Shown here in pieces: positions 6,391 to 53,578 of a stretch of 57,563 bases of DNA (the stretch's first letter is position 1; the number at the start of each line of letters is the position of its first letter). The translations under genes and the position numbers were made by a program. Where the stretch lies: IMG/VR virus record IMGVR_UViG_3300028598_000002, positions 1 through 57,563 of that record. One strand, 5' to 3'. This stretch comes from a virus. Lineage: Duplodnaviria > Caudoviricetes. The notes under the pieces were generated by a model. That model was not told where the DNA came from, did no database searches, and saw only the letters and a list, made by a program, of their open reading frames with translations.

Positions 6391-6483
6391 TTATGTCCAC
6401 TCTCCAGTCGCCAGAATAATTACCACCATAATTGCCACAGCAGCCAGCAATCCCTCAAAAATATCGTTGCTTTCACGTGTCAT
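6391..6483 (-). CDS. 30-aa single-pass membrane peptide
   Basis: MTRESNDIFEGLLAAVAIMVVIILATGEWT*. ATGA overlap with the stop of 6480..7583; fills the gap to the next gene. Confidence 0.45.
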   Translation of the reverse strand: MTRESNDIFEGLLAAVAIMVVIILATGEWT

Positions 6484-15100: not shown

Positions 15101-15465
15101 ATAGTGGCATCGCCAGACATAGTGACATTGACAAACCCGGGCTCAGGGGTTGCCGCTGAATCGTAAACATATATCTGCCCATTAATCGGAGTACCGACAA
15201 TCTCAAATGGGGGTGCCGGGGTTGTAACTGTACCGAGGTGAGCTGCAACAACGGCATCAAGAGCTGTCTGCTCTGGGCCAGTCAGTGCTGGTTCGAAGGT
15301 AAAAGTAACCCCAGTTGGAGCACCGGCAGGTGTCTTTTCACTATATTCCAGCTTGGTAGCGAGGCCGGGATCAGCATCGCGAGTTTCCATTTCCAGCGAA
15401 AACAAGTCAGCATCAGTGCCACCTTGGGCTACGAACGCGGAAAATAGATAAAATTCTGTAGCCAT
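12166..15465 (-). CDS. Long tail fibre protein (1099 aa) with internal repeats
   Basis: G/T/D/A-rich; repeated GDVVGP.SATD...QVDPI modules; WRGDGTWA fibre motif. Confidence 0.75.
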
Positions 15466-16973: not shown

Positions 16974-19900
16974 GCCAGCGGGAACAGCTTCAAGTGAGAT
17001 CAGACCGGTACCGAAGTCATACGTCAGAACAAAGTTATCTTGTCCAACTCCGACAGTTTGATCTGCATCAAATTGAAAATTACCGAGATTAATATCTTGA
17101 GCGTTAAGGTTTATTGTGCCCGTACTTTGAGCATTGAGAGTCAAGACATTGAGATTGGTATTCCCCAGAACCAGAGAGCTGACTGTCGTACCAGCGGCAC
17201 GCTCAGCAACTAAAAGATCGTCAAAGGAATTATAGGCATCATTAGCTGAGCGAAGTTTGAACTCAATGCCATTAAGATTGAATTCCCAGTTTTTCTCGTC
17301 AAGAGGTCGGCTGGTATCCTCGAAGCGCAGACTCTGGGAGGCACCAGCATTAGTTAATACTAGGTCACCAGCGGTAATGGTTGCCACTGATCCGTCATAT
17401 GTGAAATTAGCACTGCCTTCTATATCGTTTGCAGTTGCAGCACCTACAGCAATTTGGTTATCAGTTATCGAGCCACCAATAAACGTTCCTGCTGGAGCAT
17501 TGAGAATGGTTTCAGCACCCAGTTCATCAACAAACACAAGTTCCTGCGGATCGGTATCTCGGACGTATAACTGACCAAACAAAAGCTCGTCATCAAAACC
17601 GTCAATTGACTGCTGACGAAAACGCACCCCGCGCTCGAATGTAGTTCCCTCGCGGTTAAGGGTTTGCTGCACGACATTATCAGCTAATAGCTGTAACAGG
17701 CTGGTCGTATCACTGCCTGCTACCTTGGCACCGACTTGCAAAATATCGTTCGTCGGAAAGAACTGGATTCCCGCCATTTGGATGCCAGCATGGTAAAAGA
17801 AGATAGAGCCGACACCGAGATTACCCGCTACCTGATCGAGTATTATCTGCGGATTCCGCGCTGCCGTGGCATCAACCGTTAACGTCCGGTCAAATCCAGA
17901 TTCGGTATATGTCAATTCCGGCCCTGCGCCGAATGAACCAGAGTCGTTATATTGGATTTGGGTATCTGCACCAGCAGGGGCACCACCACCGGTATCAGTC
18001 AGGTCAAATTCGACGCCTGACTCAGTAGTAAATTTAATGTGCTCGTCAGCTGAATCTACCCAGAGTTGACCATAGGTAGGTCTATCAGCAATCGAAGCAG
18101 CTCGCTCCAAAATGAAGATCGGCTGATTAAGCTCAATGGCACCGGTCTCCAGCGCCATGACTTTCGTGCCGTTGGGGATATCAAATTCAAGCTGACCAGC
18201 AGTGTCATCCCATCTTGCTATTGCGCTCTCAACACCAGCGGTACGCCACGTGTGCTTACCGATACCACCTACCGGTGCGCTGACTGAAATCTCTGGTTGT
18301 GACAACCCAGCATCGCCTACAACGAACTGGTCAATGGTAGGGTTAAATGTTAATGCTGGGTTAGCATCAAAAGCACCGAGAGTGTTGTACTGGATCTGGT
18401 TTGATGAACCAGCAGCAGCACCACCAGCAGCTGCTTCAAGCGATATCAGACCAGTGCCAAAGTCATAGGTTAATACGAAATTGTCCTGACCGGCACCGAC
18501 AGTCTGATCAGCATCGAAAGCGAAATTGCCCAGATTAACAAGGTCGGTATTTAGCGTTATGAAGTTTTGCGCTACCCACTCGATATCGTCTACCTGTATA
18601 CCGACACCGGTACCGCTGCGCTGAACCTTTTCGTAGTAAATATTAATGAGCTGGTCGTCGGTCGAGATTTGTCGCTCTTGCCAGCTTCCAGTAACATGCG
18701 TTCTGAATACTTTCTGATCCAGAGGACGCCCAGTTTCCGACAAGACAATCGTAGGCTGAGTACCAGCCATGAACAGCTTAGCAGTGCCAGACTCGAAGGT
18801 AAGATCAGCACTACCCTCGATGTCGTTAGCAGTTGCCGCACCAACAGCCAGTTGATTGTCAGCAATCGAACCACCGATACCACCGCCACCAGTAGCAGCT
18901 TCAAGTGAAATTAATCCAGTACCCTGATCGTAGGTCAGTACAAAATTATCCTGACCCGCACCGATAGTCTGGTCGGCGTCGAACGCCATGGTCCCCAAAG
19001 TAGCAACGCGGGTGCTGAAATTACCACCGATTAAAGGCGTATCAGTTGCCGACTGATCGATATACAACCGATTAGAAAGGTTAAATGTTGCGGGGCCTGC
19101 AAGTGGGCCAATTGCAACATTGTTATCACCTGATGCCCCGAAGTTACCACTGAAATAACCAACGGCTACATTTCGTTCACCACCTTGGGTCAGCGCCAGA
19201 TAACCAATACCGGTGTTCTCATCGCCAAGCACACTGGTAGAACCTGATGATCCACCGACGAAAGTGTTATTGTCATTGTTGCTTAAAGACGAGCCAGCTG
19301 AATTACCGATACCGATGTTACGGTCACCGTTATTCATCCCGCTCAAAGCACCGGAGCCGACACCGGTATTGAGGGACGCACCCGACATGGTAACTGCGCC
19401 AACATTGTTACCGACAAAGGTATTGTTCTGCGCCGTTCCAAGGTTCGGCGAATTCATAGTATTGTGGCCGACAACAACATTGCCACCGACTGATAGTATG
19501 CCGCCGCCAGAATCGTTTAATGAATTATTACCTATGGCAATATTGAGGTCTGACGTAAGTAGTGCTGTACCTGCGTTTTCACCCAGTAGGATATTGTCTG
19601 AACCGGTAGTTAAACTCGCTCCCGCTCCATCCATTGCAACATAGTTATGAGTACCAGTACCAGCAAATAAGGAAGCACCGTATAAGTTATTATTCGCATC
19701 TTCTGTGAATACCCCACTACCGCCAGCTAACCCAAGTTGGAAATCTGTACCGGCATCGTCGGTGAACCATAATGTATTTGGTGTTCCATCCAATACCCAT
19801 AGTTGGCCGTACCCACCTACGTCAATATCAGCAGCTGCTTTCTCTTCCATGTAAATTGACGCGCCGTTTGCCATTATTAACGCGCCAGCTGCTGTACCAA

Positions 19901-22544
19901 AGGACCCAGTATTACCTTCAACTATAACGGGAGTATTAAAATCATCGAGGAATTCAACTGCTCCCTCATCAGCTTTCAGGGTGAGAATACTGCCTTCAAG
20001 TCCCGCGGCATCCCTACCATAAATACGAATTTCACCACCCCAAACTTCACTTCTAATCTGAAGCTCGTTATCGATATCGAAACCAATTCTTGCATAGCGA
20101 TTAGCATCGAGTGATTCAATATTGAACCACGCCTCAATTGGGTCAGCAGCTGTTGGATCTCCGATACCACCGGAGCGTAAATTAATCTCCCCCTGTAAAG
20201 CCTCGAAGAAAATATCGCCAGCATTATCAAGCAGGAGTTGATCCGTCTGCCATTCCATGGAGCTGGTGCCATCACCAACGCTAAAAATCCCAGTAGCATC
20301 ATCATAGGTAAAATTAGCATTGGCACCGAAAGCAGAGCCGCCATCGTTAAAAATAACCTGTGTATCAGCGCCGGGTGGAGGTGCTGCAAGGTTCGGTACG
20401 ACTGTCCAGTTACCAGCAAAAGTGGTCGTACTGGGGGTATCGACTAAAGCAATTAGTAGATCACCGACAATGAAAGCCTGTCCGTCTACCGTCCCTGCGA
20501 CCGAACAGTTGAACCAGTCTCCCTGACTACTGGTTACAGGGAAGGTACCAATTGAAGCGTCAAACGTGCCTTGGTACTCGCCAAACTGAGCAGCGGAGGG
20601 GACAGAATAACTCCCTGTCTCATCAAGATAGCTAGTCGCCGCACCGGCAGTGCTGAGAGTTACCCCGTTGACGGAGGTACCCGTGATCGCAGCATCGAGA
20701 TTGACAATCGGATTAATAGGATCAGTAGCATCAACATTGATATTTGTGCCACCGATTACAGTATTTACTTGTCCTCCACCACCGCCACCGGTCCCCATGT
20801 AAGCAATGACGTACATGGTGTAGACGTTACGTGGGCGGGTTTCGTTACCGCCTGTAAAAGCAGTGTTACGGCCCTGCGCGGTGCTACGTTGGTCTGGAGC
20901 ACCACCGTTATCAGTAAATCCGCCAATATTTTGTTGTGCCGTAAAACTATGTCGATGTGATTCAAGTTGATCAGCCTGCTTGGTACCAACATTATCACCA
21001 GTAGTTCCATCACCCCGGTCAGTACGCGAGCCAGAATCAGGATCGTTGCCTGCTCCATTATCCCAGCCACGCAGGAATTCACCCCTGTAGTCAGGCAAGT
21101 TAAAGGTCGCACCAGCGCCACCATAGGTGTAACCAATGACAGCGAACAGGGCGGCATAAACTGTGGTATCTACGCCTGAACCATCACACTCAAGAAAGCC
21201 GGTTGGTGGGGTATCAGTGGTCCAAGGAATAACACCACCAATTGGAAGGCTACCGCCCCCACCACCGCCAAGGTCACTAATCGTCAAGACGCGCTCGAAA
21301 CCTGCGCCAGTAGAAAGATTGTTAACTTCCAAACCGCCAGCGGTATCCGCCAGCGTTCGCGCTACTTGAGTCTTAGCAGGGCCGGTATTATTGTAGAAAA
21401 TCCATTGGCCGACACTTTCATCCCACATGCCTGCGATAACGCCATCTGATCCAAACTGTACATCGCCGGGGGCAGTCGGATGGTTCTGTCCATACATGGC
21501 GACCTGACCGCCTTCGTTGAAGTCAGCACCACCAGCAAGAGTCAATCCACCAATAGTTCCGACTCGCGTTATCTTCGGAAAGCTGGTAGTGGCCACGCCT
21601 AGCTTGATGTGCGGGGCGGCGTTATTGATATTCAGATTTGCAGCACTGTAGGTTAGCTCCGTACCGCTCCATGTTAGATCAGCAATGCCACCAAACACAC
21701 CAGCGTTATTGAACTGTAATTGAGTATCTGCACCGCCCGGGATACCGGCACCACCGGTATCAGTCAAATCGTAATCAGTACCCGCAGGGTCTGTGTAGAT
21801 CAGCTTCTGATCTGAACTCCGCATCCATATTTCACCCTTAGTAATATCAAGGGGAAAGGCATGGTCAGCACGTTCTTCGAGTCGATAGCCACCATCGCGC
21901 AAATCCAGACCGGTCGCATCGAAGAAAGCCGCGGCAGTATTGTTCGCGAATATCCTTACGCTGGCATCACCCTCGATCCGGAATGAGTCATCAGAATCGA
22001 GGTACGTAATGATGCCTTTGATATCACCAGCTTGCTCGAAGTACAGTCTTGGATCACCAGCGGCAGCGGCGTCTATATGCAGAATCGGGTTACCTAACGG
22101 GCCCGGGCCGAGCGTCAGTTCTCCTAAAGTTATGTTGTATCGTAGGTCTGTAACACCTTCAAAAAGACCGGCATTATTAAACTGGACAGTGGTATCAGCA
22201 CCGCCGATCTTATTCAGTTCGATCTGGTTGGCGAATTCATCCAGAGTACCCATGGTGACTCTGTTTTCCACAACATCATTAGTAGCGAAAGCTTCAGCTG
22301 TTGTACCACCAACAGCTCGGGTCACAGTTAGTACATTTCCTGTTACGTCAGTGACGATAACTACTTCTGATACGAATACCCCCGCAACCTGTTTTTCAAA
22401 TACCGCGTAGAAATATTCAGCACCTGCAATAGGTGGGAAGGTCGAAGCATCATCGACTGTTACTGTTGTATCCGCAGGAGCAACTGGGGCGGCAAATACC
22501 GCTCGCCCAAAATTGACAAACTGCGTGTTACTGGTATTGGGCAT
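15465..22544 (-). CDS. Giant multi-module tail fibre/adhesin (2359 aa)
   Basis: Tail-collar domain (LPIGGVIPW...[12 protein letters not shown]...ETRPRNV); YadA-head-like N..G..A repeats; repeated GADTQ.Q.N..G.F and [16 protein letters not shown] motifs. Confidence 0.8.
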
Positions 22545-22864
22545 TAGAAGGTGCCTGAATCAATAAATTCGTCAAGGAACCCGGCAGTGGCGCGAAGCTC
22601 TACCCGGGAACCTAATGCATAATCTTGAGCTATGGTGCCTTCCTCTCCACGAGTCACTGTCAAAGTATCGGTGGAACGCTCAGTCAAGTGGACTACCTCT
22701 TTGACACCGCTAACATCCTCAAGAACAAGAACGGAATATTGAACGCCTGCAATCGGGTTCGGAAAAAACTGGCCTTGTCCGACATCCAATACAATAGTGG
22801 TGTCCGCGGCTAGTATGGGAACTGCCATGGTGCCTGACGCAAAATTGTTATAAATGACCTCCAT
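22544..22864 (-). CDS. Small fibre-attachment protein, paralogous to the N-terminus of the giant fibre
   Basis: NNFASG...ADTTIV...EVV.LT....TLTVTR...GT.A...VELR.TAG matches roughly residues 8-105 of 15465..22544. Confidence 0.65.
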
Positions 22865-25255: not shown

Positions 25256-26260
25256 TTAGCCTTTGGCAGCGTACAACAGCGCGAGAGCAGTTCCGTCAGT
25301 TACTTTGTAACCGTAGACTTGCAGACCACGCATGATGGTACCAAAAGTGCGTTCTGCACGGATAGTTTCCATCTTTGTCAGCTGTGAGGCGAATGTCAGA
25401 CCGTGGCTGTGACCGGCGAAAATGCTTGTAGCATTATCAGCTGGACCGGAGAACGGCAACAGGTTTGACGCATAAAGGGTGAAACGGTCAATCATACCGA
25501 GGCGACCATTACGCAGCATAGTCATGCCATCGCCAGTCAGGGATGCATCACGCAGCTCGGAAGCTTTGATCATTGCAGCAGCCCATGCCGGGAGAATCAA
25601 CCAGCGTCCCTGCTCAGGGATATTGGCTTCATCAAGGATCTGACCCAGACGCAGGATCGCGTCAACGATATCGACGTTAGTACCCGGGGTAGCACCTTTC
25701 GGTACCAGCAACAGAGGCGTACCAGCAACACCAACATCGATGTCACCAGAAATGCGGCCAGCTGTCAGCCCTTGGTTACCCGAGTTACCGACAGGTGCCG
25801 GTGCTGGGTAGTTAGTGATGATATCAGCAGCGATATTGCCGAGAACATCAGTGTCGATAGCGATCTTCATTTGCTCGGAAGCATCATCAGACCACATGCC
25901 AAGCAGGTTCAAATCCGCTTGGGTCTCCATGACATCATCAACGATAGCCGCGAAATACTTACCTTTATCGATAAGCAGATCGACGAGGTTTGAAGAAGGA
26001 CGTTCAACATCAATGTCCTGATCAGCCTCGTAGTTGTTGATGGTCAGCGTTGGCTTGGTACGAATATTGACGGTGTCGCCTTGATTCGCAATTTCGCCAG
26101 CGTAATCAGTGTTAGCAATAGCAGCCAACACGGTTGCATCGTAGAACTTCTCGATGAGTTTTCCGGACCATAGGGCCGGGATGAAAATACCCGTATACGC
26201 GGGTGCGGCAACTGGGCCTGCTCCACCGGGATACGGGGTTGCGCTTACTGGATAAGCCAT
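25256..26260 (-). CDS. Major capsid protein
   Basis: 334 aa; 'FIPALWSGKL', 'N.DY.GEI..QGDTV.I', 'LD.ANIPE.GRW', 'RGLQVYGYKV' motifs of HK97-fold podovirus coat proteins; follows the scaffold gene. Confidence 0.9.
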   Translation of the reverse strand: MAYPVSATPYPGGAGPVAAPAYTGIFIPALWSGKLIEKFYDATVLAAIANTDYAGEIANQGDTVNIRTKPTLTINNYEADQDIDVERPSSNLVDLLIDKGKYFAAIVDDVMETQADLNLLGMWSDDASEQMKIAIDTDVLGNIAADIITNYPAPAPVGNSGNQGLTAGRISGDIDVGVAGTPLLLVPKGATPGTNVDIVDAILRLGQILDEANIPEQGRWLILPAWAAAMIKASELRDASLTGDGMTMLRNGRLGMIDRFTLYASNLLPFSGPADNATSIFAGHSHGLTFASQLTKMETIRAERTFGTIMRGLQVYGYKVTDGTALALLYAAKG

Positions 26261-26283: not shown

Positions 26284-27381
26284 TTATTGCCCGATCAGGA
26301 TTCTCCCCTGAGTCAGAGCAGCTTGTATTTCCGCTTCAGTCGCCTTGTATTCATCCTGACGACCTTTATACATGCCCTTTCGGGCATCCTCGTAGAATTT
26401 GCCGATTTCCGACTCCTTCCACTGACGGCCTGTTTCTTGAATATTGTCAGCCCCACCACTCGCGCCTAAGCCCGGTGATGCTAGCGTTTCCAGAGTAACC
26501 GCGGGTTGGCGTGCTGGTTCAGCCACCTCAGTTTCTTCAGTGTTCGCTGCGGGTTGCAGTGCTGCATTTTCTTTCAAAAAGCCCTTAAAGAACAGAATAA
26601 CCCTTTCGGTATCATTTTGCTCAAATGCTCTCGTGAGCAACAGTTTGCGGGGAACTCCCGCATACACATCTTCCTCGCCAAGCCAGTTTAAAAAGTCAGG
26701 ACTTGTGTTAACCTGCTTCCAGTTAGGCACGGCACCGGCTAATGCGGTGTACAACTTGCCTCGGACATCAGCTTCTTGCTGCTGCCCTACGCTTCCGACA
26801 ACCTCTTTCAAGGTCTCGTTTTCTCTCCGAAGCTCTGCCAGTTGCCCAGCTACGGCTTCAGTTGCGGCCCGCTTGATTACATCAATCATGTCGGGTCCAT
26901 AATCTGCGATTTCTTCCGAAGTCAGCAGGTTCTCTACTGCTGCATCCATATCACCACTGGGTGATTCGACTTCTCCGGTTTGCGAGCCTTTCATGCCCTG
27001 CAAATTCGCCAACATTCCTTCGAGTGCTTCCACTCGTCCTGTCAGCTCAGCATTAGCACGCTTCTCGGAATTATACATTCCTTGGAGTGTTTTATACTTA
27101 TGCTCAAATTCAGCAGCTTGAACCGCTGGGTCTACACCCAGTTCAGTCGGCTCAGGCTGCTCGTGCTCTTCGGTCGTGACGATCTCATCGGCTTTGGGCG
27201 TTTCAGCCTCAAAGTCTAGGCTCTTGTCTACAGGTTCCTGTACTTCTTCGGTTTCACCTTCAGCTTTGTTTTCCACGACTTCAAGTTGTGGATTTTCCGC
27301 TTGTTTCCGCTCAGCTTCAATTTCAGCCGCAATTCTGTCGGCTTCTTCTATCTGATCTTGGACCTGCTTTGGCAATGCCAT
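26284..27381 (-). CDS. Capsid scaffolding protein
   Basis: 365 aa, acidic coiled-coil; 'KYKTLQG.Y', 'VPNW......F..WL', C-terminal 'A...GRI'; directly upstream of the capsid gene. Confidence 0.75.
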   Translation of the reverse strand: MALPKQVQDQIEEADRIAAEIEAERKQAENPQLEVVENKAEGETEEVQEPVDKSLDFEAETPKADEIVTTEEHEQPEPTELGVDPAVQAAEFEHKYKTLQGMYNSEKRANAELTGRVEALEGMLANLQGMKGSQTGEVESPSGDMDAAVENLLTSEEIADYGPDMIDVIKRAATEAVAGQLAELRRENETLKEVVGSVGQQQEADVRGKLYTALAGAVPNWKQVNTSPDFLNWLGEEDVYAGVPRKLLLTRAFEQNDTERVILFFKGFLKENAALQPAANTEETEVAEPARQPAVTLETLASPGLGASGGADNIQETGRQWKESEIGKFYEDARKGMYKGRQDEYKATEAEIQAALTQGRILIGQ

Positions 27382-28425: not shown

Positions 28426-28908
28426 TTACCCGCCACCACCAGCAGTACCCCAATTGATACAAATCGGAATCTGATTGCCAACTTCAGATTCCAAGTAATT
28501 CTCAAGACCAACATCGAGTACATCGGGCGTATAATCACCGTTACCGGGATTCCATCCCCACTCAACTTCGGGGTATGTACCGAAAGTTATTAACAGACTC
28601 CTACCTGCACCGGAAGGAATCTCTGAATTGCCATTCATGTCCATAACACCCGCACCATTGTTGAGACCAAAAATGACTATCTCGAATATGGTCGCACCGT
28701 TAATCGTTGGTGGAACCATCGCCCCGTATGATCCACTTTGATAACCTACATTGTTACCAGACTGCCCAACCGTCATGACACCGTTATAGGGATCACACCC
28801 AACTGGTGGTTGAACACCACCATTATAATCAATCGGCTGACCATCCCACCCAGAGGAATCAACACCACCGAATTCCCTTCTACCTCGCTGGGATCTGTTC
28901 GTACCCAA
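28426..28908 (-). CDS. Putative virion decoration protein B (shared 29-aa N-terminus)
   Basis: TTG start immediately after the TAA of 28909..29433, same frame; begins MGTNRSQRGRREFGGVDSSGWDGQPIDYN. Confidence 0.6.
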   Translation of the reverse strand: MGTNRSQRGRREFGGVDSSGWDGQPIDYNGGVQPPVGCDPYNGVMTVGQSGNNVGYQSGSYGAMVPPTINGATIFEIVIFGLNNGAGVMDMNGNSEIPSGAGRSLLITFGTYPEVEWGWNPGNGDYTPDVLDVGLENYLESEVGNQIPICINWGTAGGGG

Positions 28909-29433
28909 TTAAAATCCTTCCATCTTAATGTAGACAAAATCCACATCAGAACCAGCAGCGTTGGCAACTGTCATTTGAATACGTTTCCATCGACCACCAC
29001 CGCCGGGATTTTCTTCTATGACGCTATCACTGACACTGTTATACGGTGCTGCGCCGATATACGGACCGGCGTCAGTTGGTTGGCTAACTGGACCATTTTC
29101 AGATCCTTGCCAATCCCAATCAATACCTTCATCACCGGGATCTTGTGTATAGGCAGTCCATGAGGGGCCGGGGAAAACTGGTCGCGTTGGGCCATCATCG
29201 CTGCTGAAATGAGTAACCGTAAATTCACAGAGTGCGGGGTTAATTAGTCCACCACTCAAATTAACGCCAGCATCAAAACCACTACTTACGTTTTGCTCGA
29301 TATCATTGACTGAATCAATGACCGGGGGAAGTAAGGCGGGGCCGGGATTGTAATCAATAGGCTGACCATCCCATCCGGATGAATCAACACCATCGAACTC
29401 TCGTCTCCCTCGCTGGGATCTGTTTGTGCCCAT
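28909..29433 (-). CDS. Putative virion decoration protein A (shared 29-aa N-terminus)
   Basis: Begins MGTNRSQRGRREFDGVDSSGWDGQPIDYN; C-terminal 'MTVANAAGSD' resembles the end of an Ig/PKD-like domain. Confidence 0.6.
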   Translation of the reverse strand: MGTNRSQRGRREFDGVDSSGWDGQPIDYNPGPALLPPVIDSVNDIEQNVSSGFDAGVNLSGGLINPALCEFTVTHFSSDDGPTRPVFPGPSWTAYTQDPGDEGIDWDWQGSENGPVSQPTDAGPYIGAAPYNSVSDSVIEENPGGGGRWKRIQMTVANAAGSDVDFVYIKMEGF

Positions 29434-29435
29434 GA

Positions 29436-29702
29436 TTAACCGCCCGCTTCTTTAATCTGCTTGTCTCTCCAGCGCTTCCGGTTCTTACCGTAGGTTTCCG
29501 TGGCTTCCTGCCGGGAATCTTTCTTACCGGAATCGTTCAAGAATTTATCCGTGATATTTTTATTCACGAACTTCGCAACCTCGTTGACGGGTTTCAGCAC
29601 TTTGAGAATAACGTCTGTGCTGGTGGTTTTCTTTTTCTTGGCCTCACCACCGCTAGCCATTTTCATGCGCGAGGATGATTTCTTTTTCATATATGGATTC
29701 AT
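29436..29702 (-). CDS. Small basic protein with MASGG motif
   Basis: 88 aa, Lys-rich, coupled to the portal stop. Confidence 0.55.
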   Translation of the reverse strand: MNPYMKKKSSSRMKMASGGEAKKKKTTSTDVILKVLKPVNEVAKFVNKNITDKFLNDSGKKDSRQEATETYGKNRKRWRDKQIKEAGG

Positions 29703-31855
29703 ACCGCTTGCCCTCCCGGGCCTCGTTGGTCTGCTCTCATACCCTCTTCAGGGCCGCTCTCGCCACCCCCGGGCTTCTCTTGCTGCATAGCTTGCTGCTG
29801 CTGAGCCGCTTGCATTTGTTGTGCTTTACCGGCCATTGTATCTTCATCAGGCACGATGCTCAGAGAGTCGAGCCCTATCCGGTCTCCAATCTCACGGAGT
29901 AATTCTGCCCTGCCTTCAAGGCCAATAATCTCAGTATCAATTGGGTTACCAGTAAGCTGCATAAATTCGAGTAACCGGGCACGCTCGCTTTCTTTCTGAT
30001 TAGCGAAGACGACTCCACGGACTTTGATATTTTCATCGCCATCAAGCCTGCCCTGCTCATCAGTCAGTAGTACGGTATCGTACAATCTCTGTAAGAGGGG
30101 TGTAAAAATGTCTTGGTCGATATTAGCGGCAACACCTTGCAGCATCTTACCGGCATTTTGCATCAGCATGCTTAATCCGGAAGCCGTTCGCCCTGCCCCG
30201 CCTTGGCCGCTAGCTGAACCAGACATATACCGCGGTATCGCAGAAATCTCGTCAGCCATGACGTTCATTTGCTGGTAAACATTCATCAGCTCTCCGGATC
30301 TGGAGTCAGGCTGGAAGAAAGTCACCGCAGGTTCTGCTGAGCCCATAGGATCAGTTAAAGTATGCCAGCGTTTCCACGGGTATAGGTCATCGGTATTCGT
30401 ATTGGGCGAAACTCGGTCATCGTTGATAACGACTTGCGGCCCCGAAGCGATAGACAGGTTATTCACCAACGCTCGGAGCGAAGCATTGGCAACATCCTGC
30501 ACATCCGACATGATTTCAGGAACACCATAGCCAACTATCGCCCCGGGGATCTTTTCGAAGGAGGATTTGTAATAAGGGTGTCGTTTACGAGGATTCGGGT
30601 CAATCTGGAGCTTAATCATGTGGTATCCCACTAGCCAAGCATTACAGAAGTAATCTTTGTCAGCATCGGGGACTTCTTCCTTGCTGAACCCATATTCGAG
30701 CAACATTCTGCCCTGAACATAGCCATGGAACTCTAGGGTGTCGATCTGCTCGGATCGGTTAATATGCGGGTCCATACGGAGTTCGAGGTGCGCTTTTTCG
30801 GTATCTGTATAGTCAAGCCAGTCGGAAAGACCACCTTGACCATATTCGTCGAGCGCTGCCCTGATGGCATCGTCATCATATCCCGGTAAGCCGAGCAAAT
30901 TGTTGAGGTCAGTCCTCTGTAAACGTAGGTGTTCAATGACATTACAATTCTCGAAGTAGTCAGTCTGCGAAGACCAGTAAATGTCGAATGGTGATGGCGT
31001 AGTCCAGTACATCTTGGGAAGATTCTTTACAACGGCTTCGCCATTTTCCCATTTCACGTCAGTTGCCATTTTGACAACCGGCCCTTTCATGAACGCATAG
31101 GGGAACACGCTCAAGTTGTGGAGGAACTCATTGAGTGCTTGATAAAACATCCCTTCAGTCAGGATGTCATCTAAATAACGGGTTGATTCTGCCGCGGATT
31201 TTTTGGCTTGTTTTAAGGCGGATTTTTTAGCGCTTGCTGTTAACTGCTTGATACGATCTGTAACGGTGTTGTGGTCAACCTGCTCACCCGCGGATTGCAT
31301 CTTCTGCACTTCCATGGTAACCAGCTCAAGAACCGATTTAGTTACATCTTCCGGTAAAGTTGGGTCAGGGGTAGGTTCGATAAACCACGGGCGCTCACCT
31401 GCAAGATAGATGTCCCGTAGCATAGCAGTTGCTCCGCGGCACTTGACAGTGGTGAGTCTGGCGAAAACTTGGGACCCGCCGAATTGATTAATCGAAGTAA
31501 GTTTCTGTGGCGTATATTCTCCTCGGTAAGCCCTAAGGGATTCGACCAGTCGATCCGATATCCCACGAGTCTCTCGATCCGATCTATATTCGAAAAATTG
31601 TGATCGAATATATCCCGCAACGCCTTGCCTTTTGGACAGTTCGGTTTGTTGGGCTTCTTCACGGATCATTTCCTCTTCTTGACGTTCAGCATTTTGCATT
31701 TCGCCGTTGCTGATGACACGAAGCATGCCTTGGCTACCTTCCCGCTGGGTTGGGGAGGGAATACCGACTTTATTTTCCGCAGAGGGTAGGGCGTTCGAAC
31801 CGGGCCCTAAAGACAGGTTTCTTACGCCCGCATGAGTGGTTTCGCCATACGCCAT
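29699..31855 (-). CDS. Portal protein
   Basis: 718 aa between terminase and scaffold; 'SPFDIYW', 'G.GVPE...DVQ...NA..RA..NN.SIASGPQ', 'RTASGLSML' portal motifs. Confidence 0.85.
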   Translation of the reverse strand: MAYGETTHAGVRNLSLGPGSNALPSAENKVGIPSPTQREGSQGMLRVISNGEMQNAERQEEEMIREEAQQTELSKRQGVAGYIRSQFFEYRSDRETRGISDRLVESLRAYRGEYTPQKLTSINQFGGSQVFARLTTVKCRGATAMLRDIYLAGERPWFIEPTPDPTLPEDVTKSVLELVTMEVQKMQSAGEQVDHNTVTDRIKQLTASAKKSALKQAKKSAAESTRYLDDILTEGMFYQALNEFLHNLSVFPYAFMKGPVVKMATDVKWENGEAVVKNLPKMYWTTPSPFDIYWSSQTDYFENCNVIEHLRLQRTDLNNLLGLPGYDDDAIRAALDEYGQGGLSDWLDYTDTEKAHLELRMDPHINRSEQIDTLEFHGYVQGRMLLEYGFSKEEVPDADKDYFCNAWLVGYHMIKLQIDPNPRKRHPYYKSSFEKIPGAIVGYGVPEIMSDVQDVANASLRALVNNLSIASGPQVVINDDRVSPNTNTDDLYPWKRWHTLTDPMGSAEPAVTFFQPDSRSGELMNVYQQMNVMADEISAIPRYMSGSASGQGGAGRTASGLSMLMQNAGKMLQGVAANIDQDIFTPLLQRLYDTVLLTDEQGRLDGDENIKVRGVVFANQKESERARLLEFMQLTGNPIDTEIIGLEGRAELLREIGDRIGLDSLSIVPDEDTMAGKAQQMQAAQQQQAMQQEKPGGGESGPEEGMRADQRGPGGQAV

Positions 31856-32095: not shown

Positions 32096-33499
32096 TTATG
32101 TCCACGCTTCTGCGGGGGGTGGTGGTGCAGCTGCCATGGGCTCACTCATAGCCCGTGCCAGCACATTGCTTGCCGCGGATAGCGCGAGGTACTGTAATCC
32201 ATCCGCGAGATCCGACTCTGGGTGTCCCTTCTCCGGTTTTTCGGCAAGTATCCCCTTCTTGTCACGCGGATAGCGGTAGTCTCGCATAAGCGCCAAGATG
32301 AGACGCTCGTTATACCGTTTGTCGATAAGAAGTCCCCCGCCTCCGTCCACTTGCATGCCGAGGTACCGCTCCACGGCCCGAAGGCGCGGCGTAATGTCAT
32401 TAGTCGGAGCCAAGATGGCCGAGTATCCCAGCCTCTTGACAGCGTCGAGTACAGACTCTTCTCCGATCTGGGAACGCTGTCGCGCAGCGGGGTCAAGGGA
32501 TATGAAGAATTTTCCACCTTCGAGGACTTGAGTAAGAAAGGGTCTGACGACCTGACTGATGAACTTTTCGATCCCCATGTTTTCGGTGTATACGGACCCA
32601 AATACCAAGAGTCGCCCACGGGAGTCGATTTGACCAGCCACCAGAGCCGGGTTGCGCCCGGTATCCATGCCCAAGACAATCGGACGCCCATAGTCGGGGA
32701 AGAGTTTTTCCCGAGAGTGAAAATTGACATTAAACGTCTTCGCGAATACCGCTTGTCCCGAGAGACTCGGCGTGATTTTGTTATGTACGTACTGCTCACA
32801 CCATGCAGGGTCATTTGCCTCAAGAAGGTCTTCATAGTAACGCGGCGGGAGGTGTTCCCGATTCTCTGCCCCCTCTTCAAATGCACCCGGTTGAACGAAA
32901 TAATCGACATTGTTCGGCCTCTGTGATGTTTCTAAAAAGTCGTAATACTCACTATCCTCGCTGAAGCTGTTGGTCTCCCCCCATAGGCCATAGTAGTAAT
33001 CGGTCAGATTGACGCGACTCGGATAACGACCGCAACGGGAGTACGCTGCCTGAATCAACTCTAATGGCAGCTCCCGAAATTCCGAAGCCCAGCAGAAGGT
33101 GATTTCCAGTGACAGCAAACGCTGCTGATTCTCTGGCGTATCCAGAGGTAGCAAAAGTACATCACACTCGACGGGTATCCCATCGGCTGGTGTAAATCTG
33201 ATGTATAGCGTCGAGTCGGACACTTTCCAATTCGATATGGGTCTCAGCCATTCCTGCATGGTCACGAGGCACGTTGACTTCAACTGCTGTAACGTATTCC
33301 TGATCACCAAGCACCGCGACCGCCTCGTACCGTCAGAGCTAACGCCAATCTCGCTCGCACGCCGCACAATCTCCATGGGGCCTAGTCCTACCGACTTGCC
33401 ACTACCTACAGGACCGCGAACCATGCGTATACGGGCGTCAGACTCATGAAACTTGGAAATCGTTGGCGAGGCATTATACACCCTGCTGATGTCAGCCAC
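32096..33499 (-). CDS. terL: Terminase large subunit
   Basis: Walker A GPVGSGKS, Walker B-like FCWASE, nuclease motifs 'LGMDTG', 'DPA' and 'SDLADGLQY'. Confidence 0.9.
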   Translation of the reverse strand: MADISRVYNASPTISKFHESDARIRMVRGPVGSGKSVGLGPMEIVRRASEIGVSSDGTRRSRCLVIRNTLQQLKSTCLVTMQEWLRPISNWKVSDSTLYIRFTPADGIPVECDVLLLPLDTPENQQRLLSLEITFCWASEFRELPLELIQAAYSRCGRYPSRVNLTDYYYGLWGETNSFSEDSEYYDFLETSQRPNNVDYFVQPGAFEEGAENREHLPPRYYEDLLEANDPAWCEQYVHNKITPSLSGQAVFAKTFNVNFHSREKLFPDYGRPIVLGMDTGRNPALVAGQIDSRGRLLVFGSVYTENMGIEKFISQVVRPFLTQVLEGGKFFISLDPAARQRSQIGEESVLDAVKRLGYSAILAPTNDITPRLRAVERYLGMQVDGGGGLLIDKRYNERLILALMRDYRYPRDKKGILAEKPEKGHPESDLADGLQYLALSAASNVLARAMSEPMAAAPPPPAEAWT

Positions 33500-38065: not shown

Positions 38066-38177
38066 AGTACCACCCAACCACAAATCCAAGGCTGGAAAAC
38101 CAGCCTTTAACCCCGCCTTGCAGTGGTGTGCAAAACAGCGCACTGCTGCTCGGCTCAACCCTAAAGGGACCGACAAA

Positions 38178-39236
38178 ATGAAACTTTCAGACCTAGATGA
38201 CAACCAGATGACCAAGCAATTCAACGCAGGGCATGCGATGTGTTTGCGTGGTAGCCCCGGCATAGCCAAGACTGCGGTAGTTGAGCAGTATTGCGAACGC
38301 CATGACCTCGGATGTATCGTCATGAACTTGACAGCATCTGACCCGATGGATGCTTTGGGATTTTTAATCCCAGTCAAGACCGATGATGGTCCTGTTGCCC
38401 ATTACTCTAAGCCTAATTGGCTTACTCGTATCGAGGAGTCAGGCGAAGAGCAAGGAATTTTATTCCTTGATGAGCTGCTCAGTGCTGAGCACATCACCGT
38501 CAAGGCATTTGCACCACTGATGTCCGAAGGACGTATCGGTGAATGGTTACTGCCCGAAGGATGGGTAGTCTGGGCCTCTGGTAACAGAGTCCAAGACAAA
38601 TCCGGTGCCATGAAAATGCTGGTCCATGCTGGTAACAGAATGAACGTCATAGACGTTGAACCTGACCTCGAAGCATGGTGTACTTGGGCTAACGATGCCG
38701 GTGTACATCCGATGTACATAGCATATGCCAATGCTCGCCCCGGTGAAGTGTTTGCCGGTGAACCGCCGAAGGACCCCGATGAGCAAAGGCTTACGCCTCG
38801 TTCACTGGTGTTCGCTCAGGACTACCACACTGGTGGTCAAGTCGAAGACGACTTGGCACTTGATCTGGACCCCGTGACACAAGCTATGGTTGCTGGGTAT
38901 ATTGGTCAAGCTTCAACCGCGGATCTGTTCGGATTCTTCCGAACTGTTGACGAGTTGCCGACGATTCAAGAGATCATCGACAGCCCTGATACAGCGAAGC
39001 TGCCCGACTCGATGCGGATGGATGCTCAATATGCAGCTGTCCAGCTGTGTATTCACCATGCCGATAGTGAAACTATCGACCCCATCTTCCAGTATGTAAC
39101 GAGGCTGAACAAGGAACTGCAAGCCTCCGCTGCGAAGCAGCTTATCGACAAGACCAAGGGCTCATTGCTTAACAGCAAGGCACTCGGCCAGTGGATGAGT
39201 GAAAACCCAGCGTTGATTACATCAACCTTTGCATAA
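38178..39236 (+). CDS. MoxR-like AAA+ ATPase
   Basis: Walker A GSPGIAKT, Walker B ILFLDE, sensor 'ASGNR', 'NR' finger, 'TPRS'; ATG at 38178. Confidence 0.8.
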   Translation: MKLSDLDDNQMTKQFNAGHAMCLRGSPGIAKTAVVEQYCERHDLGCIVMNLTASDPMDALGFLIPVKTDDGPVAHYSKPNWLTRIEESGEEQGILFLDELLSAEHITVKAFAPLMSEGRIGEWLLPEGWVVWASGNRVQDKSGAMKMLVHAGNRMNVIDVEPDLEAWCTWANDAGVHPMYIAYANARPGEVFAGEPPKDPDEQRLTPRSLVFAQDYHTGGQVEDDLALDLDPVTQAMVAGYIGQASTADLFGFFRTVDELPTIQEIIDSPDTAKLPDSMRMDAQYAAVQLCIHHADSETIDPIFQYVTRLNKELQASAAKQLIDKTKGSLLNSKALGQWMSENPALITSTFA

Positions 39237-39276
39237 ACCCCAGCGCCAAGGATGGCGCACATTACAGGAGACCGAC

Positions 39277-40548
39277 ATGAAGTACTCACCTGAATTGACT
39301 GAATGTTTGAGCAACCTAGTTGCTCAGCAACCTTTCTTCGCCACCTATTTGTATAACAATATGGAACTCGGCGAAAACCCCAGCATTTCGACAGCCCGTA
39401 CCAATGGTACTCGTATCGAAGTCAACCCTGAATGGTTTGGTAGCAAACCAATACAGCAACGAGTGTTCATCATGGCTCACGAGATCATGCATGGCATACT
39501 CGATCATATGGGACGCGATGCCCTGTACATCAAGCGAGGCTTTGGCCCTGACTTGCTGCCATTCAACCCTGAGACCAGCAACGAAGCTCAGGACTACGTC
39601 ATCAATGCCATGCTGAAGGAAGCACGTATTGGTGAGATGCCGCCCTCTGGGCTATGGGACCCGAGCATCAAAGGCGATGCATTATCCGATGAGGTATACG
39701 TACAACTCAACGGACAGAAGCAGGACCCCGATGCCAAGGACAAATCACCCGATGCCGATGGCAACGATAAAGGTGATGGTCAAGGACAGGCGCAAGGCCA
39801 AGGTCAACCTGACCAAGGTCAGAAGTCTGGTGATGACAACTCACCACCAAGTCACGGTAGTGATAAGGAAGGTGAGGGTTTTGATGAGCACGTAGCAGCT
39901 GGCGAAGCCAAGCCTGAGCAAGAGCAAAAGACCGCTATGGCTCAAGCGATGCAAGCTGCCGAAGCTATGGGCTCAATGCCTGAGTCACTCAAGCGAGTGA
40001 TCGGTGGATTGATCGACCCCGAAGTATCATGGGAAGAGCAATTCCGTAACTCTGTTACGGCTCGACAAGGGCAAGATACCCAGACATGGAGACGCCCGAA
40101 TCGTCGCCGCATTGCAGTAGCACCACACATCTACACCCCGGGCAAGACAGGACACCAGATCGGTGGACTGGTACTTGCTGTGGACGTGTCAGGATCACTG
40201 AACGAAGTCATGCTGACCAAGTTACTTAGCGAAGCTAAGGGGCTGCTGCAAGAAGTCAAGGCCGAATGGGTCAAGGTTATCTGCTGGAATACTGAGCATC
40301 AAGGTACCTTTGACATCGATGATCCAGAGGAACTGGATACCCTCGAAATAGATGGGGGTGGTGGTACTAGGCTCGAATCAATGGCACGGTACCTCGACGA
40401 CGAGGACATACTGCCTGAGCAGATAGTCTGGTTCACTGATGGAATCACTAGGTATAGTGATACCAACCCATTCAGCTGTGATGTTACGTGGTTACTCACA
40501 ACTGACCGCAGGGTACCGTCTTACGGTACCATCATCCACATGAAATAG
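39277..40548 (+). CDS. HExxH metallopeptidase + vWA domain protein (DUF2201-like)
   Basis: AHEIMH, 'N.A.DY.IN', G/Q/D-rich linker, MIDAS DVSGS, GGGGT, FTDG. Confidence 0.8.
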   Translation: MKYSPELTECLSNLVAQQPFFATYLYNNMELGENPSISTARTNGTRIEVNPEWFGSKPIQQRVFIMAHEIMHGILDHMGRDALYIKRGFGPDLLPFNPETSNEAQDYVINAMLKEARIGEMPPSGLWDPSIKGDALSDEVYVQLNGQKQDPDAKDKSPDADGNDKGDGQGQAQGQGQPDQGQKSGDDNSPPSHGSDKEGEGFDEHVAAGEAKPEQEQKTAMAQAMQAAEAMGSMPESLKRVIGGLIDPEVSWEEQFRNSVTARQGQDTQTWRRPNRRRIAVAPHIYTPGKTGHQIGGLVLAVDVSGSLNEVMLTKLLSEAKGLLQEVKAEWVKVICWNTEHQGTFDIDDPEELDTLEIDGGGGTRLESMARYLDDEDILPEQIVWFTDGITRYSDTNPFSCDVTWLLTTDRRVPSYGTIIHMK

Positions 40549-40609
40549 CGCACTGCTGCTTCATTCCAACAACCCCGCGCCAAGGATGGCGCATCAACTG
40601 GAGACCGAC

Positions 40610-40957
40610 ATGATTACCACAACCCGAAAAGAAACCGCCAAGTTACTACGCATTGCGTTAGAACAGGCTATACGTCTGAGCGATAACGAGAATGTGTATG
40701 GCGACCGAGACGACCAAGGGCACGAACAATCTGCCAGCGTCGAATACTTCAAAGAGTACATCGAGCAACTTGAGCGTAAACAATCCGCGCCTTACGTTGA
40801 AGAAGGCTATTACACCATCGAGAGTAAGGAGGATTCCGTAGACTGTGACCATGGTCCATGTAATGGGATCAATCTCGATAACGGCTGGATTGTCTGGACG
40901 TATCCAGAGAAACCCGACCTGATTTCTTTCCACCCCAATTTCACAAGGGAGAAATAG
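40610..40957 (+). CDS. Hypothetical protein
   Basis: ATG at 40610 directly after GGAGACCGAC. Confidence 0.55.
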   Translation: MITTTRKETAKLLRIALEQAIRLSDNENVYGDRDDQGHEQSASVEYFKEYIEQLERKQSAPYVEEGYYTIESKEDSVDCDHGPCNGINLDNGWIVWTYPEKPDLISFHPNFTREK

Positions 40958-40959
40958 CC

Positions 40960-41139
40960 ATGACTTTGCAAGAATTTTCCGAGCAAGTTGCCGCGGCAGC
41001 TGAGCTACACCCTGAGGCTGAGGTGGTGATAACAACTCTGGATGATGAGTATAACGTCCATTCGACCGAGTTTCAGACATGGAAAAATGGCTTCATAAAC
41101 TCAATCATCTTTTCGATCCAATCTGACGAGGAATTCTGA
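40960..41139 (+). CDS. 59-aa hypothetical protein
   Basis: MTLQEFSEQVAAAAELHPEAEVV...*; GGAG SD; TGATG overlap with the next gene. Confidence 0.5.
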   Translation: MTLQEFSEQVAAAAELHPEAEVVITTLDDEYNVHSTEFQTWKNGFINSIIFSIQSDEEF

Positions 41140-41504
41140 TGGATAACTACGACACCCTGAAAGATTCTCATGAGCTGGCGCAGGAACAGCAACAGGATCT
41201 GGATGAAGCGAATGACGCACAACTCAAGATCGAGCACTGGTGCTATGACCATTTGCCTGAGGCATTTAAAGACTGCCTGAAAAGACCCGCGGGAGAAAGC
41301 CTACTGGCACACGCTCGTGAGGACAAACGCGATAGCTGGCTATCCCTGTTAAAGCTGACTGGTTTATACAGAGCGGAGACGGAATTTGCTGGGGAAACCC
41401 ACGTAATTGCCGCCAGTGGCTGGTGTGATTGCGAACGTGTCTGGGAGTACATCAATCACGCAGATGCTAAGCACGCCATGCTGGAAGAAATGCTCGATGC
41501 CTAA
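41139..41504 (+). CDS. Hypothetical protein
   Basis: 121 aa acidic ORF with GAGG SD. Confidence 0.55.
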   Translation: MDNYDTLKDSHELAQEQQQDLDEANDAQLKIEHWCYDHLPEAFKDCLKRPAGESLLAHAREDKRDSWLSLLKLTGLYRAETEFAGETHVIAASGWCDCERVWEYINHADAKHAMLEEMLDA

Positions 41505-41967
41505 TACACCAATTATCCCTACCCTCTGGGCACAGAAATTGCTGAACGAATTCTATGACAACATACTGTTGTCGAGTATCACGAAGGGTATCAGTGCTCA
41601 GGAGGTATGGGACTCCTTTAAATCTGACTTGGGGATGACCGACATGAAACTACATGAAGCCGAACACATACCCGATCACGTGAAGAAGATGATCGACAAG
41701 GTGACCGAGGCCGAAGGTCAGTGTGCTGGCCTGAATTTTATCTATGGCCGACATTGGGAGACGTTCAAAAGCATCATGCTGCTGAGCGGTGCTCACGTTA
41801 CCGAAGCCAAGGAAATCACCGTACCATCACCGCGCCAAAATGAGTGGGTATGCATTGGCATGAAGCAGGCCATCAACGTAGGCGACCTGAATATATTTTT
41901 CGGAATACTCAACGGCACCTACATTCACCCCAGCAAACACGGCAACCACCTGAAGGTGGGGCCTTGA
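41497..41967 (+). CDS. Hypothetical protein with a capsid-like N-terminal segment
   Basis: ATG at 41497 overlapping the previous gene's end; IPTLWAQKLLNEFYDNILLSSI resembles capsid residues 27-48. Confidence 0.55.
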   Translation: MPNTPIIPTLWAQKLLNEFYDNILLSSITKGISAQEVWDSFKSDLGMTDMKLHEAEHIPDHVKKMIDKVTEAEGQCAGLNFIYGRHWETFKSIMLLSGAHVTEAKEITVPSPRQNEWVCIGMKQAINVGDLNIFFGILNGTYIHPSKHGNHLKVGP

Positions 41968-41999
41968 TGCTGAGCCCTTAACATTAACTGGAGACCGAC

Positions 42000-42272
42000 A
42001 TGAACCCAGCAATCCGCAAGATCGATTACGACCAAATGGTAGAAAGCTACCAACGAACCCAGCGCAACATCGCGTTCGAGATAGGCAAGGCCCAAGATGA
42101 AATGAAAGAGGCCATGATCTACGCTCGTGAAATGCAGCGCCGGTACCAAGACACGCTGGAGGAAGATGGTTACACCAGCGAATTGCAGTACTGGACCGAG
42201 CGCGTGCAGAACCTTAAGCTGGCGCAGCGCGTGCTGAATGAAGCACGCTTATTTTCTGACTACAACCGATAA
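42000..42272 (+). CDS. Hypothetical coiled-coil protein
   Basis: 90 aa after GGAGACCGAC. Confidence 0.55.
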   Translation: MNPAIRKIDYDQMVESYQRTQRNIAFEIGKAQDEMKEAMIYAREMQRRYQDTLEEDGYTSELQYWTERVQNLKLAQRVLNEARLFSDYNR

Positions 42273-42286
42273 CGGAGACCGACGAC

Positions 42287-42697
42287 ATGGGATATACACA
42301 TTACCTAGGACACCACACCCGATTCACTGACGAGCAGTGGGATAAGCTCACGACATTCACACGTGCTGCAATCAAAGCGACCGACATTCCGATTGGCGAT
42401 GCCAATGGGGAAGGTGGCAAGCCCGAAATATCTGACGAGTGCATACACTTCAACGGAATAGGCGACGATGCATACGAAGATTTTTACCTATCACGTGAGC
42501 CCGATAACGGCTGCTTCTGCAAGACTGAGCGCAAGTCCTACGATGTTGTGGTCGTTGCGGTCCTGCTATATGCCAACGAGATAGCACGAGACAGTATTGC
42601 TACCACCAGTGATGGCGAGATCTTTGGCTATGGTCCTGACAAATGGGACGAGCGCAGTAGCGCAATGGACCTGATGAATAAGGTGCTCAACCAATAA
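42287..42697 (+). CDS. Hypothetical phage protein
   Basis: 'MGYTHY...I.FNG....E.F...FCKT..K.YD.VV..L...SDG' pattern. Confidence 0.6.
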   Translation: MGYTHYLGHHTRFTDEQWDKLTTFTRAAIKATDIPIGDANGEGGKPEISDECIHFNGIGDDAYEDFYLSREPDNGCFCKTERKSYDVVVVAVLLYANEIARDSIATTSDGEIFGYGPDKWDERSSAMDLMNKVLNQ

Positions 42698-52892: not shown

Positions 52893-53198
52893 ATGAAACG
52901 ATTTACCGCGTACCGACACGATATGGACGAGCACCATAACACCCACAACGAAAACCAGAAGAATCCGGAAGGTGAGCCCCAGTACGAAGGCATCATCTTT
53001 ACCGATGGTTCCTGCGCTATCCGCTGGCTGACTGTATGCAAATCCACCTCTGTGTGGGACAGCTTCGAGACAGCAATGCTCGTACATGGGCACCCCGAAT
53101 ATGGCACTGAGATCGTGTTTCATGACGAACCTGCCGACCTGCCATGGGAAGAACCCCAGATCCAGACACGTAACAAAGCGGGGAACATACTATTATGA
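52893..53198 (+). CDS. Hypothetical phage protein
   Basis: ATG at 52893 with GGAGG SD; 'EG..F.DG..A.RW....ST......HGH' pattern. Confidence 0.6.
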   Translation: MKRFTAYRHDMDEHHNTHNENQKNPEGEPQYEGIIFTDGSCAIRWLTVCKSTSVWDSFETAMLVHGHPEYGTEIVFHDEPADLPWEEPQIQTRNKAGNILL

Positions 53199-53578
53199 GC
53201 CAAGCCATGGCGAAAGCCGTTGAAAAATATATCCTGCTGCGCGACGAAAAGAAGCGCATCCAAGACAAGCATAAGGAGGAACTAGCACCCCTCAACGATG
53301 CAATGTCCAAGATTGAAAACGCAGTGCAAAAAATCCTGATCAATCAGGGTGCTACCAACAGTAAGACACCAGCTGGCACTGCCTACCTGAGCACAACCAA
53401 ACGACCAAAGGTAGTTGACTGGTCCGAGTTGAAGCCGTTCTTAATTGAGAACGACTTGTTAGACATGATGACCCGGTCGCTCAGTGCCACCGCGGTCGAT
53501 GAGTTCTACGAATCAACAGGTGATTTGCCCCCGGGCGTCACCATCACATCTGAAACCAATTGCCGCTTCAAGCGGTAG
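53195..53578 (+). CDS. Coiled-coil replication-module protein
   Basis: 127 aa; 'KT.AGT.Y', 'V.DW', 'LPPGV' motifs. Confidence 0.55.
   Translation: MSQAMAKAVEKYILLRDEKKRIQDKHKEELAPLNDAMSKIENAVQKILINQGATNSKTPAGTAYLSTTKRPKVVDWSELKPFLIENDLLDMMTRSLSATAVDEFYESTGDLPPGVTITSETNCRFKR

Follow-up and report, generated by a model that had tools for sequence, protein, structure and literature searches.

A replication-arm protein of an uncultured tailed phage whose N-terminus resembles the capsid N-arm: a possible docking peptide

The locus and its two proteins

The stretch of DNA analysed here, referred to as the window, comprises 57,563 bases and corresponds to one virus record (IMGVR_UViG_3300028598_000002), which comes from an uncultured tailed phage, was assembled from metagenomes and has a completeness rating of 96%. 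Two of its genes, which lie 15 kb apart on opposite strands as had been described earlier, encode the accessory protein P0001 and the major capsid protein P0002, and the subject of this report is the likeness between the N-terminus of the former and the N-terminal arm (N-arm) of the latter. The features concerned are as follows.

41497..41967, plus strand: gene of P0001, an accessory protein of 156 amino acids without a known family (open reading frame and translation)
41515..41583, plus strand: N-arm-like segment of P0001, residues 7-29, with the pattern IP-x-L-W-x-x-K-L-L-x-x-F-Y-D and then a hydrophobic stretch (profile, hidden Markov model (HMM) and hhalign matches)
41659..41946, plus strand: conserved core domain of P0001, residues ~55-150, common to the whole family including short forms without the N-arm-like segment (alignment A1)
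25256..26260, minus strand: gene of the major capsid protein P0002, 334 amino acids, of the HK97-fold family (phrog_267, PF25209, PDB 8e16)
26117..26182, minus strand: N-arm segment of P0002, residues 27-48, the counterpart of the P0001 segment (ungapped alignment)

The ATG of P0001 at 41497 lies in an 8-nucleotide overlap with the stop of the upstream gene, with GGAAG 9 nucleotides upstream, and the same N-terminus is found in frame in three P0001 homologues (P0129, P0130 and P0003). Because of this start context and of the homologues, a downstream start at the methionine of MTDMK, which an earlier note on this DNA had considered, is unsupported, and the peptide (residues 7-28, encoded at 41515-41580) can be regarded as translated. 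P0001 consists of two parts, namely a likeness of the N-arm of about 30 residues and a C-terminal domain of about 100 residues without a known family or fold. No Pfam family was matched at E <= 1 and no PHROGs family at E <= 0.1. In the AlphaFold2 (AF2) model of P0001, built on an alignment of only 7 sequences, residues 1-30 have a predicted local distance difference test (pLDDT) score below 50 and contain a helix at residues 10-22, while the score is 68-91 over residues 51-140, the N-terminal helix being separate from the better-defined core. Searches with this model returned no match at E <= 0.001 either in the PDB (best 3.5) or in BFVD (best 1.6), and the ESM Atlas gave no lead, with a best feature score of 0.87 and a template modelling (TM) score below 0.5 for every structure.

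P0002 is recognised as a major head protein by phrog_267 (E 9.8e-54) and by Pfam PF25209 (28.8 bits, the cut-off being 27), and its nearest solved relative is the capsid protein of phage Che8 (PDB 8e16, E 1.6e-18). The family is very large, with more than 7900 relatives at E <= 1e-10 when 8000 candidates were scored, and by its capsid protein the phage is closest, among cultured ones, to four Rhizobium phages of ~61 kb (62.6% identity). The matches of P0002 to known phages and to 8e16 start at residue 26, that is, at the motif, and few parts of the capsid family are as conserved as this segment. In particular, residues I27, P28, W31, K34, E37, F39, Y40, T43 and V44 are invariant in 114 capsid sequences. 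The AF2 model of P0002 has its spine helix at residues 117-146, and since residues 27-48 precede both the E-loop strands and this helix, the segment can be placed in the N-arm. The same model gives residues 11-39 a pLDDT below 50 and no secondary structure, and it cannot show the segment as a helix; according to the Che8 capsid paper, N-arms are usually poorly predicted. The terms N-arm helix and scaffold-binding are thus applied to P0002 by analogy with other phages.

Strength of the likeness

The earlier note had aligned P0001 residues 7-28 without gaps to capsid residues 27-48, and on re-counting both the positions and the number of identities proved correct (11 of 22: I, P, L, W, K, L, F, Y, D, L, I). 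A BLASTP comparison of the two proteins extends this to 13 identities in 31 positions (31.6 bits, E 4e-6 as a single comparison), the sole other segment having an E of 1.2. The Smith-Waterman score of 67 was reached by none of 5000 shuffles of either protein (maxima 63 and 56), which corresponds to a Gumbel p of ~1e-5. The P0001 segment follows the capsid motif F-I-P-x-I/L-W-S-G-K-L-I-E-K-F-Y-D and keeps six of the nine capsid-invariant N-arm residues (I, P, W, K, F, Y).

The question was decided by comparisons with the capsid family as a whole. An N-arm HMM was built from residues 24-50 of 120 other capsid proteins, the window's own being excluded, and was run against 1053 window frames and 6 homologues; the P0001 frame was found at E 2.9e-5, the next window frame having an E of 0.5. 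The HMM score of P0001 (19.8 bits) was reached by none of 20000 shuffles of the protein (maximum 13.1), so that the alignment withstands shuffling in both tests. A second profile, A2, compiled from 50 different N-arm segments of related viral contigs, matches 41515-41583 at E 2.0e-7 (27.6 bits). When the close clade of P0001 was aligned with 114 capsid proteins by hhalign, residues 4-30 were paired with capsid residues 24-50 only, at a probability of 90.5% and E 1.4e-6. As the earlier note had held, the remainder of P0001 is unrelated to the capsid protein, no other segment being significant. P0001 is not matched as a full-length member of the capsid family: the hhalign alignment covers 27 columns only and the predicted secondary structure is without the long spine helix.

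A chance match without meaning has to be weighed at this point, since in an all-against-all BLASTP of the 353 window frames of at least 60 amino acids the P0001/P0002 pair has an E of 7.7e-4; with 353 queries about 0.27 equally good pairs would be expected by chance, and the pairwise match taken alone is therefore borderline genome-wide. This explanation is nevertheless highly improbable and close to refuted, as homologues score as well as P0001 or better against the N-arm HMM (P0003 22.9 bits, P0129 20.8 bits), no shuffle attains the score of P0001, and the profile and hhalign comparisons give E 2e-7 and E 1.4e-6. On these sequence comparisons, the likeness of the P0001 N-terminus to the capsid N-arm is real and significant.

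Conservation within the P0001 family

The family of P0001 is rare. It includes P0129 (94% identical), P0130 (85%), P0003 (66%) and P0004-P0008, together with five metagenome loci, and the five representatives P0004-P0008 were those found at E <= 0.001 among 1.84 billion proteins. Its core, H-I-P-D ... G-L-N ... D-L-N-I-F-F-G, comprises about 100 conserved residues with 13 invariant columns in alignment A1, and in phmmer matches P0006-P0008 cover only residues 48/55-145/147 of P0001. Further searches added no members: blastn and tblastn of a phage collection with the region and with P0001 gave no match, scans of viral contigs with P0001 and alignment A1 matched 3 capsid genes and no family member, and a search with P0001 residues 1-45 against proteins of 85-273 amino acids gave 3 candidates of which only the query itself passed, the word index being too insensitive.

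Within the close clade formed by P0001, P0129, P0130 and P0003, the segment is kept in frame in all four members (19.2-22.9 bits against the N-arm HMM), which bears out its conservation in close homologues. Between P0001 and P0003 the identities are 17/23 in the segment, 18/26 in the linker and 60/91 in the core, the segment being no less conserved than the core domain. Thirteen of the 23 segment columns are invariant across the clade, and the residue is that of the capsid in nine of these 13 as against two of the ten variable columns (Fisher one-sided p 0.026). Taken together with the start context, the segment is translated and under selection, as judged from the aligned genes.

At the DNA level the P0001 and capsid segments share 37 of 66 bases and only 8 of 22 third codon positions, and because of this low third-position identity the likeness is not a recent copy but an old one held at the protein level. 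The suggestion that it could be a neutral scar of recombination thus finds little favour, at least for a recent event, the peptide being retained throughout the clade. Over P0001 residues 6-28, identity amounts to 8-14 of 23 residues against the 50 N-arm variants and to 11 against the window's own capsid; no particular donor can be recognised, and the phage's own capsid protein is not preferred.

The scaffold and the recurrence of the motif

The following features in the window and in the nearest relative record (G001, whose capsid is 85% identical) are relevant to the partners of the N-arm and to its possible recurrence.

26284..27381, minus strand: scaffolding protein, 365 amino acids, directly upstream of the capsid gene (phrog_13678, E 8.8e-39), conserved in 54 related loci
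26386..26427, minus strand: C-terminal motif of the scaffold, residues 319-332, RQWKESEIGKFYED, with the W-x4-I-x2-F-Y-D/E spacing found in the N-arm
L090 7883-8152, identical to G001:C1:7883-8152, plus strand: ORF89, an open reading frame of 89 amino acids with a weakly N-arm-like N-terminus and a GTG start that overlaps the upstream stop

The scaffold is the probable partner of the capsid N-arm, given the position of its gene and what is known of phage head operons. Its family has a C-terminal motif of its own, K-R-I-W-T-x-x-E-I-x-x-F-Y-x-D, which is also present in L093 682-1707 and in the scaffolds of L010-L089. The N-arm and scaffold profiles match weakly in hhalign (P 0.009, probability 4.5%), and the window's own scaffold does not reach E <= 1 against the N-arm profile. 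For the P0001 family against 54 scaffolds hhalign gave P 0.071 and a probability of 0.8%, so that P0001 is not found to mimic the scaffold C-terminus. Co-folding of the capsid protein, scaffold residues 200-365 and P0001, run without controls, gave scores of 0.00 and 0.07 against a mark of 0.32 and weighs neither way.

Recurrence of the motif was searched with profile A2 in 71 records, which comprise the window and 19 related records (E <= 1), 50 of 64 further fragmentary loci (E <= 0.1) and Rhizobium phage RHph_TM3_14A. The capsid gene was matched in all 71, and there were four matches outside capsid genes: P0001 (E 2e-7), ORF89 of G001 (E 0.004) and the scaffold C-termini of G017 (E 0.012) and G027 (E 0.004). 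The three instances other than P0001 are weak. ORF89 begins MSKQMARKS-FFPEIWS, with the motif right after a short basic leader as in P0003, while the rest of the protein is unrelated. Its gene stands on the strand of the head genes, the terminase gene following ~2.5 kb downstream. Its likeness to the N-arm is weak, with an hhalign E of 3.4e-4 (probability 38%) beside the per-genome value given above. The same N-terminal peptide on unrelated remainders would be represented by the P0001 clade at 19-23 bits and, doubtfully, by ORF89 at only 9.5 bits, no further case being found in the 71 records.

Genome setting

The left arm of the window carries head and tail genes on the minus strand, including tail-fibre-like giants, and the right arm carries on the plus strand genes for an ATPase, a metallopeptidase/vWA-like protein, many small proteins without a known function, endonuclease VII, DNA polymerase, an exonuclease, a helicase and a primase-helicase. 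Two head genes serve as landmarks of the left arm.

32096-33499, minus strand: terminase
29699-31855, minus strand: portal

The P0001 gene lies in the replication arm near the ATPase, polymerase, helicase and primase genes and is surrounded by small fast-evolving genes. Its early expression, as assumed in the earlier note, is suggested by this location only; a promoter scan found 8 sites against 10.3 +/- 3.1 in shuffles, that is, no excess over chance.

Several small genes adjoin P0001-family genes, at 41139-41504 (plus strand) in the window and at 10478-10837 in L009, 2265-2534 in L006 and 207-548, 508-867 and 1388-1636 in L005. They have a (Y/H)-x-(H/Y)-(I/L/V)-P-x-x-hydrophobic motif followed by W/F...L-L-x-G, which resembles the start of the P0001 core, and on this resemblance they may represent distant paralogues arranged in a tandem array that is diversifying. 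The paralogy of 41139-41504 and of the L009 neighbours with the P0001 core was tried by hhalign and set aside as too weak (E 0.002 and 0.0009, probability 14-22%). The product of 41139-41504 also shows a weak likeness to that of 53195-53578 (28% over 71 amino acids, E 0.006).

In the right arm of the window, 38118-39236 (plus strand) encodes the ATPase (phrog_1297, E 7e-69) and is followed by a gene for a protein of 439 amino acids at 39229-40548 (plus strand). The latter matches phrog_1314, which is labelled HNH endonuclease, yet its sequence has a metallopeptidase-like H-E-x-x-H motif (AHEIMH). The ATPase and its partner presumably resemble MoxR-type ATPase/vWA pairs.

In the left arm, the tail-fibre-like proteins of 1099 amino acids (12166-15465, minus strand) and 2359 amino acids (15465-22544, minus strand) have a segment in common with 89% identity over 119 amino acids, and the larger one also shares modules with 22544-22864 (43% over 99 amino acids) and with 6480-7583 (32% over 168 amino acids). 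Between portal and scaffold, the adjacent minus-strand genes 28426-28908 and 28909-29433 are paralogues (47% over 87 amino acids) without a PHROG family.

As to sources, nearly all sampled words of 40586-42697 are present in seven DNA runs labelled marine sediment or sediment metagenome, all of which are possible sources. Pieces identical to the window were also obtained from runs X8-X10 (marine metagenome) and X11 (estuary metagenome); those from X8-X11 are short and mostly identical to the window, and none covers 41516-41677.

A docking peptide as the favoured reading

In phage 80alpha the C-terminal helix of the scaffold contacts helix alpha1 of the capsid N-arm (PMC5644958). In procapsid I of SPP1 every capsid subunit holds the scaffold via its N-terminal helix, and after release of the scaffold this helix unfolds to an N-arm and forms an antiparallel pair with its counterpart in an adjacent capsomer (PMC6813328). 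The internal proteins of T-even phages are diverse, are injected, counter host defences and have in common only an N-terminal capsid targeting sequence (CTS), which loads them onto the scaffolding core (PMC3012670).

Because the N-arm helix makes contacts with scaffold or N-arms in 80alpha and SPP1, the P0001 segment is best read as a docking peptide. By this analogy, the N-terminal helix of P0001 would dock the protein to the scaffold or the capsid during head assembly in the manner of a capsid targeting tag, a reading that is favoured here tentatively and could well fail. The first ~30 residues of P0001 would then be an old, selectively kept likeness of the capsid N-arm that binds the partner of the N-arm, be it the C-terminal domain of the scaffold, the inner face of the capsid or the N-arm itself, and docking would bring the C-terminal domain of P0001 to assembling procapsids. 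In the most likely outcome P0001 would be taken up into heads and passed on together with the DNA, as happens with proteins carrying the T4 CTS; less likely, it would modulate assembly. Support comes from the alignments, which suggest docking in that the likeness is significant, is confined to the N-arm, falls on capsid-invariant residues and stands at the extreme N-terminus. The signs of selection on the segment and, weakly, the N-terminus of ORF89 speak for it as well.

A number of observations weigh against docking. The P0001 gene lies outside the head genes, and packaged proteins are usually encoded among these. Of the 29 window proteins that were compared with PHROGs, none could be recognised as a prohead protease. 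Among the 19 related records, in which the capsid and scaffold family is present, none has a homologue of the P0001 core (10 of the 19 being at least 90% complete), and P0001 matched only capsid N-arms there, in 11 of them; P0001 is hence dispensable for head assembly. G001 is uninformative as to the presence of P0001, its contig ending at window positions ~39.2 and 51.2 kb. In the P0001 clade, N17 and E/D18 replace the invariant E37 and the at least 90% conserved K38 of the capsid, and if those residues contact the scaffold, binding would differ. The second example is weak, as ORF89 has no relatives in IMG/VR beyond its own record and no Pfam family. Lastly, a significant segment is absent from five of nine family members: P0004 reaches only 4.0 bits, and P0005-P0008 score at or below zero bits or are unlisted.

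This last point leads to a different explanation, since with the segment missing from more than half of the members the helix could be an ordinary structural element of the subfamily, without any link to the capsid and kept for the protein's own fold, its resemblance going back to old shared ancestry or to convergence of an amphipathic helix with an Ile-Pro cap. P0004 (51% identical) is in the same register and aligns there without relative gaps, yet keeps only W-S-x-x-V-I-N-x-F. P0005 has a different N-terminal extension that is likewise helical and lacks the motif, and in P0006-P0008 and the L006 member, all of them short forms, the protein begins just before the core. The positional counterpart of P0001 on contig L009 is also a short form, next to a neighbour 45% identical to window 40586-40957. 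Moreover, much of the match is made up by the hydrophobic face (W, L, L, F, Y), and no recent transfer is visible in the DNA. However, the likeness extends to the polar residues K14 and D21 and to the Ile-Pro cap, the match is concentrated on capsid-invariant residues, a profile E of 1e-6 to 1e-7 is hard to obtain by convergence of generic helices, and the model, shallow as its alignment is, does not place the helix against the core with confidence. An ordinary structural helix is the main rival reading, on balance somewhat less likely than docking.

Interference with head assembly, which the earlier note had raised with regard to competitors, is improbable. Here an N-arm-like peptide would compete for the scaffold or pair with N-arms and so poison or redirect the heads of a co-infecting relative or satellite, or else delay the phage's own assembly. 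Mimicry at the capsid-scaffold interface has precedent, since CpmB of SaPI1 and the 80alpha scaffold are competitors for the N-arm (PMC5644958) and Ccm of SaPIbov5 is a capsid homologue that redirects assembly (PMC8569155), and P0001 shows no preference for its own capsid. On the other hand, P0001 resembles the N-arm of its own phage no less than those of relatives, and self-poisoning would have to be avoided; moreover, the known interferers are encoded by satellites rather than by phages.

The other proposal of the earlier note was a decoy, namely that P0001 is produced ahead of the capsid protein and offers the N-arm peptide to a capsid-sensing host defence, thereby blocking or titrating the sensor. 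Capsid proteins do trigger several defence systems, the likeness is real and conserved, and the gene stands in the replication arm among small fast-evolving genes. A mimic of the trigger would however be expected to activate the sensor rather than block it, unless key residues are altered, and a search of the literature (open-access papers and bioRxiv) found no capsid-peptide decoy. We give the decoy little credence.

Relation to known systems and significance

With respect to HK97-fold capsids (PF25209 Phage_capsid_4, phrog_267), P0001 has the N-arm pattern I-P-x-L/I-W-x-x-K-L-x-x-x-F-Y-D plus a hydrophobic stretch in the same register, but matches over only ~27 residues and is without E-loop, spine helix, P domain and A domain. 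The Gol peptide, which is sensed by Lit, and the trigger of CapRel SJ46 are examples of short capsid parts recognised by host proteins; these triggers are parts of the capsid protein itself, whereas P0001 is a separate phage-encoded copy. T4 and encapsulins provide examples of short peptides that direct proteins to heads, and satellites provide examples of mimicry of the capsid-scaffold pair. Like proteins with the T4 CTS, P0001 is a small accessory protein with a short conserved N-terminal peptide (PMC3012670), the resemblance drawn here being one of arrangement; no protease that would remove such a tag was recognised among the scanned window proteins. Like P0001, CpmB of SaPI1 is a look-alike of one side of the interface between N-arm and scaffold (PMC5644958), but CpmB resembles the scaffold side and is satellite-encoded while P0001 resembles the capsid side and is phage-encoded. 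Ccm of SaPIbov5 is likewise a second capsid-like product, but a full homologue, whereas P0001 corresponds to the N-arm only (PMC8569155). In the literature searched, no phage protein outside the head module was found with a copy of the capsid N-arm, nor was any tag found that is copied from the N-arm of the capsid protein itself.

A wider idea, which is quite doubtful and built on analogy, is that the scaffold-binding N-arm of the capsid acts as a portable address tag on unrelated accessory proteins (P0001 and perhaps ORF89), which would ride the scaffold into the procapsid and be injected with the DNA. The weak likeness of the scaffold motif would extend this to a three-way helix code shared by capsid arm, scaffold tail and cargo tag.

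Collectively, if the P0001 segment does bind scaffold or capsid, it would offer a minimal tag of natural origin with which cargo could be loaded into HK97-type heads, would give access to the way in which the N-arm is recognised by scaffolds across a very large capsid family and would suggest how accessory proteins may turn into injected ones, and if it acts on a host sensor instead, it would be the first capsid-peptide decoy.

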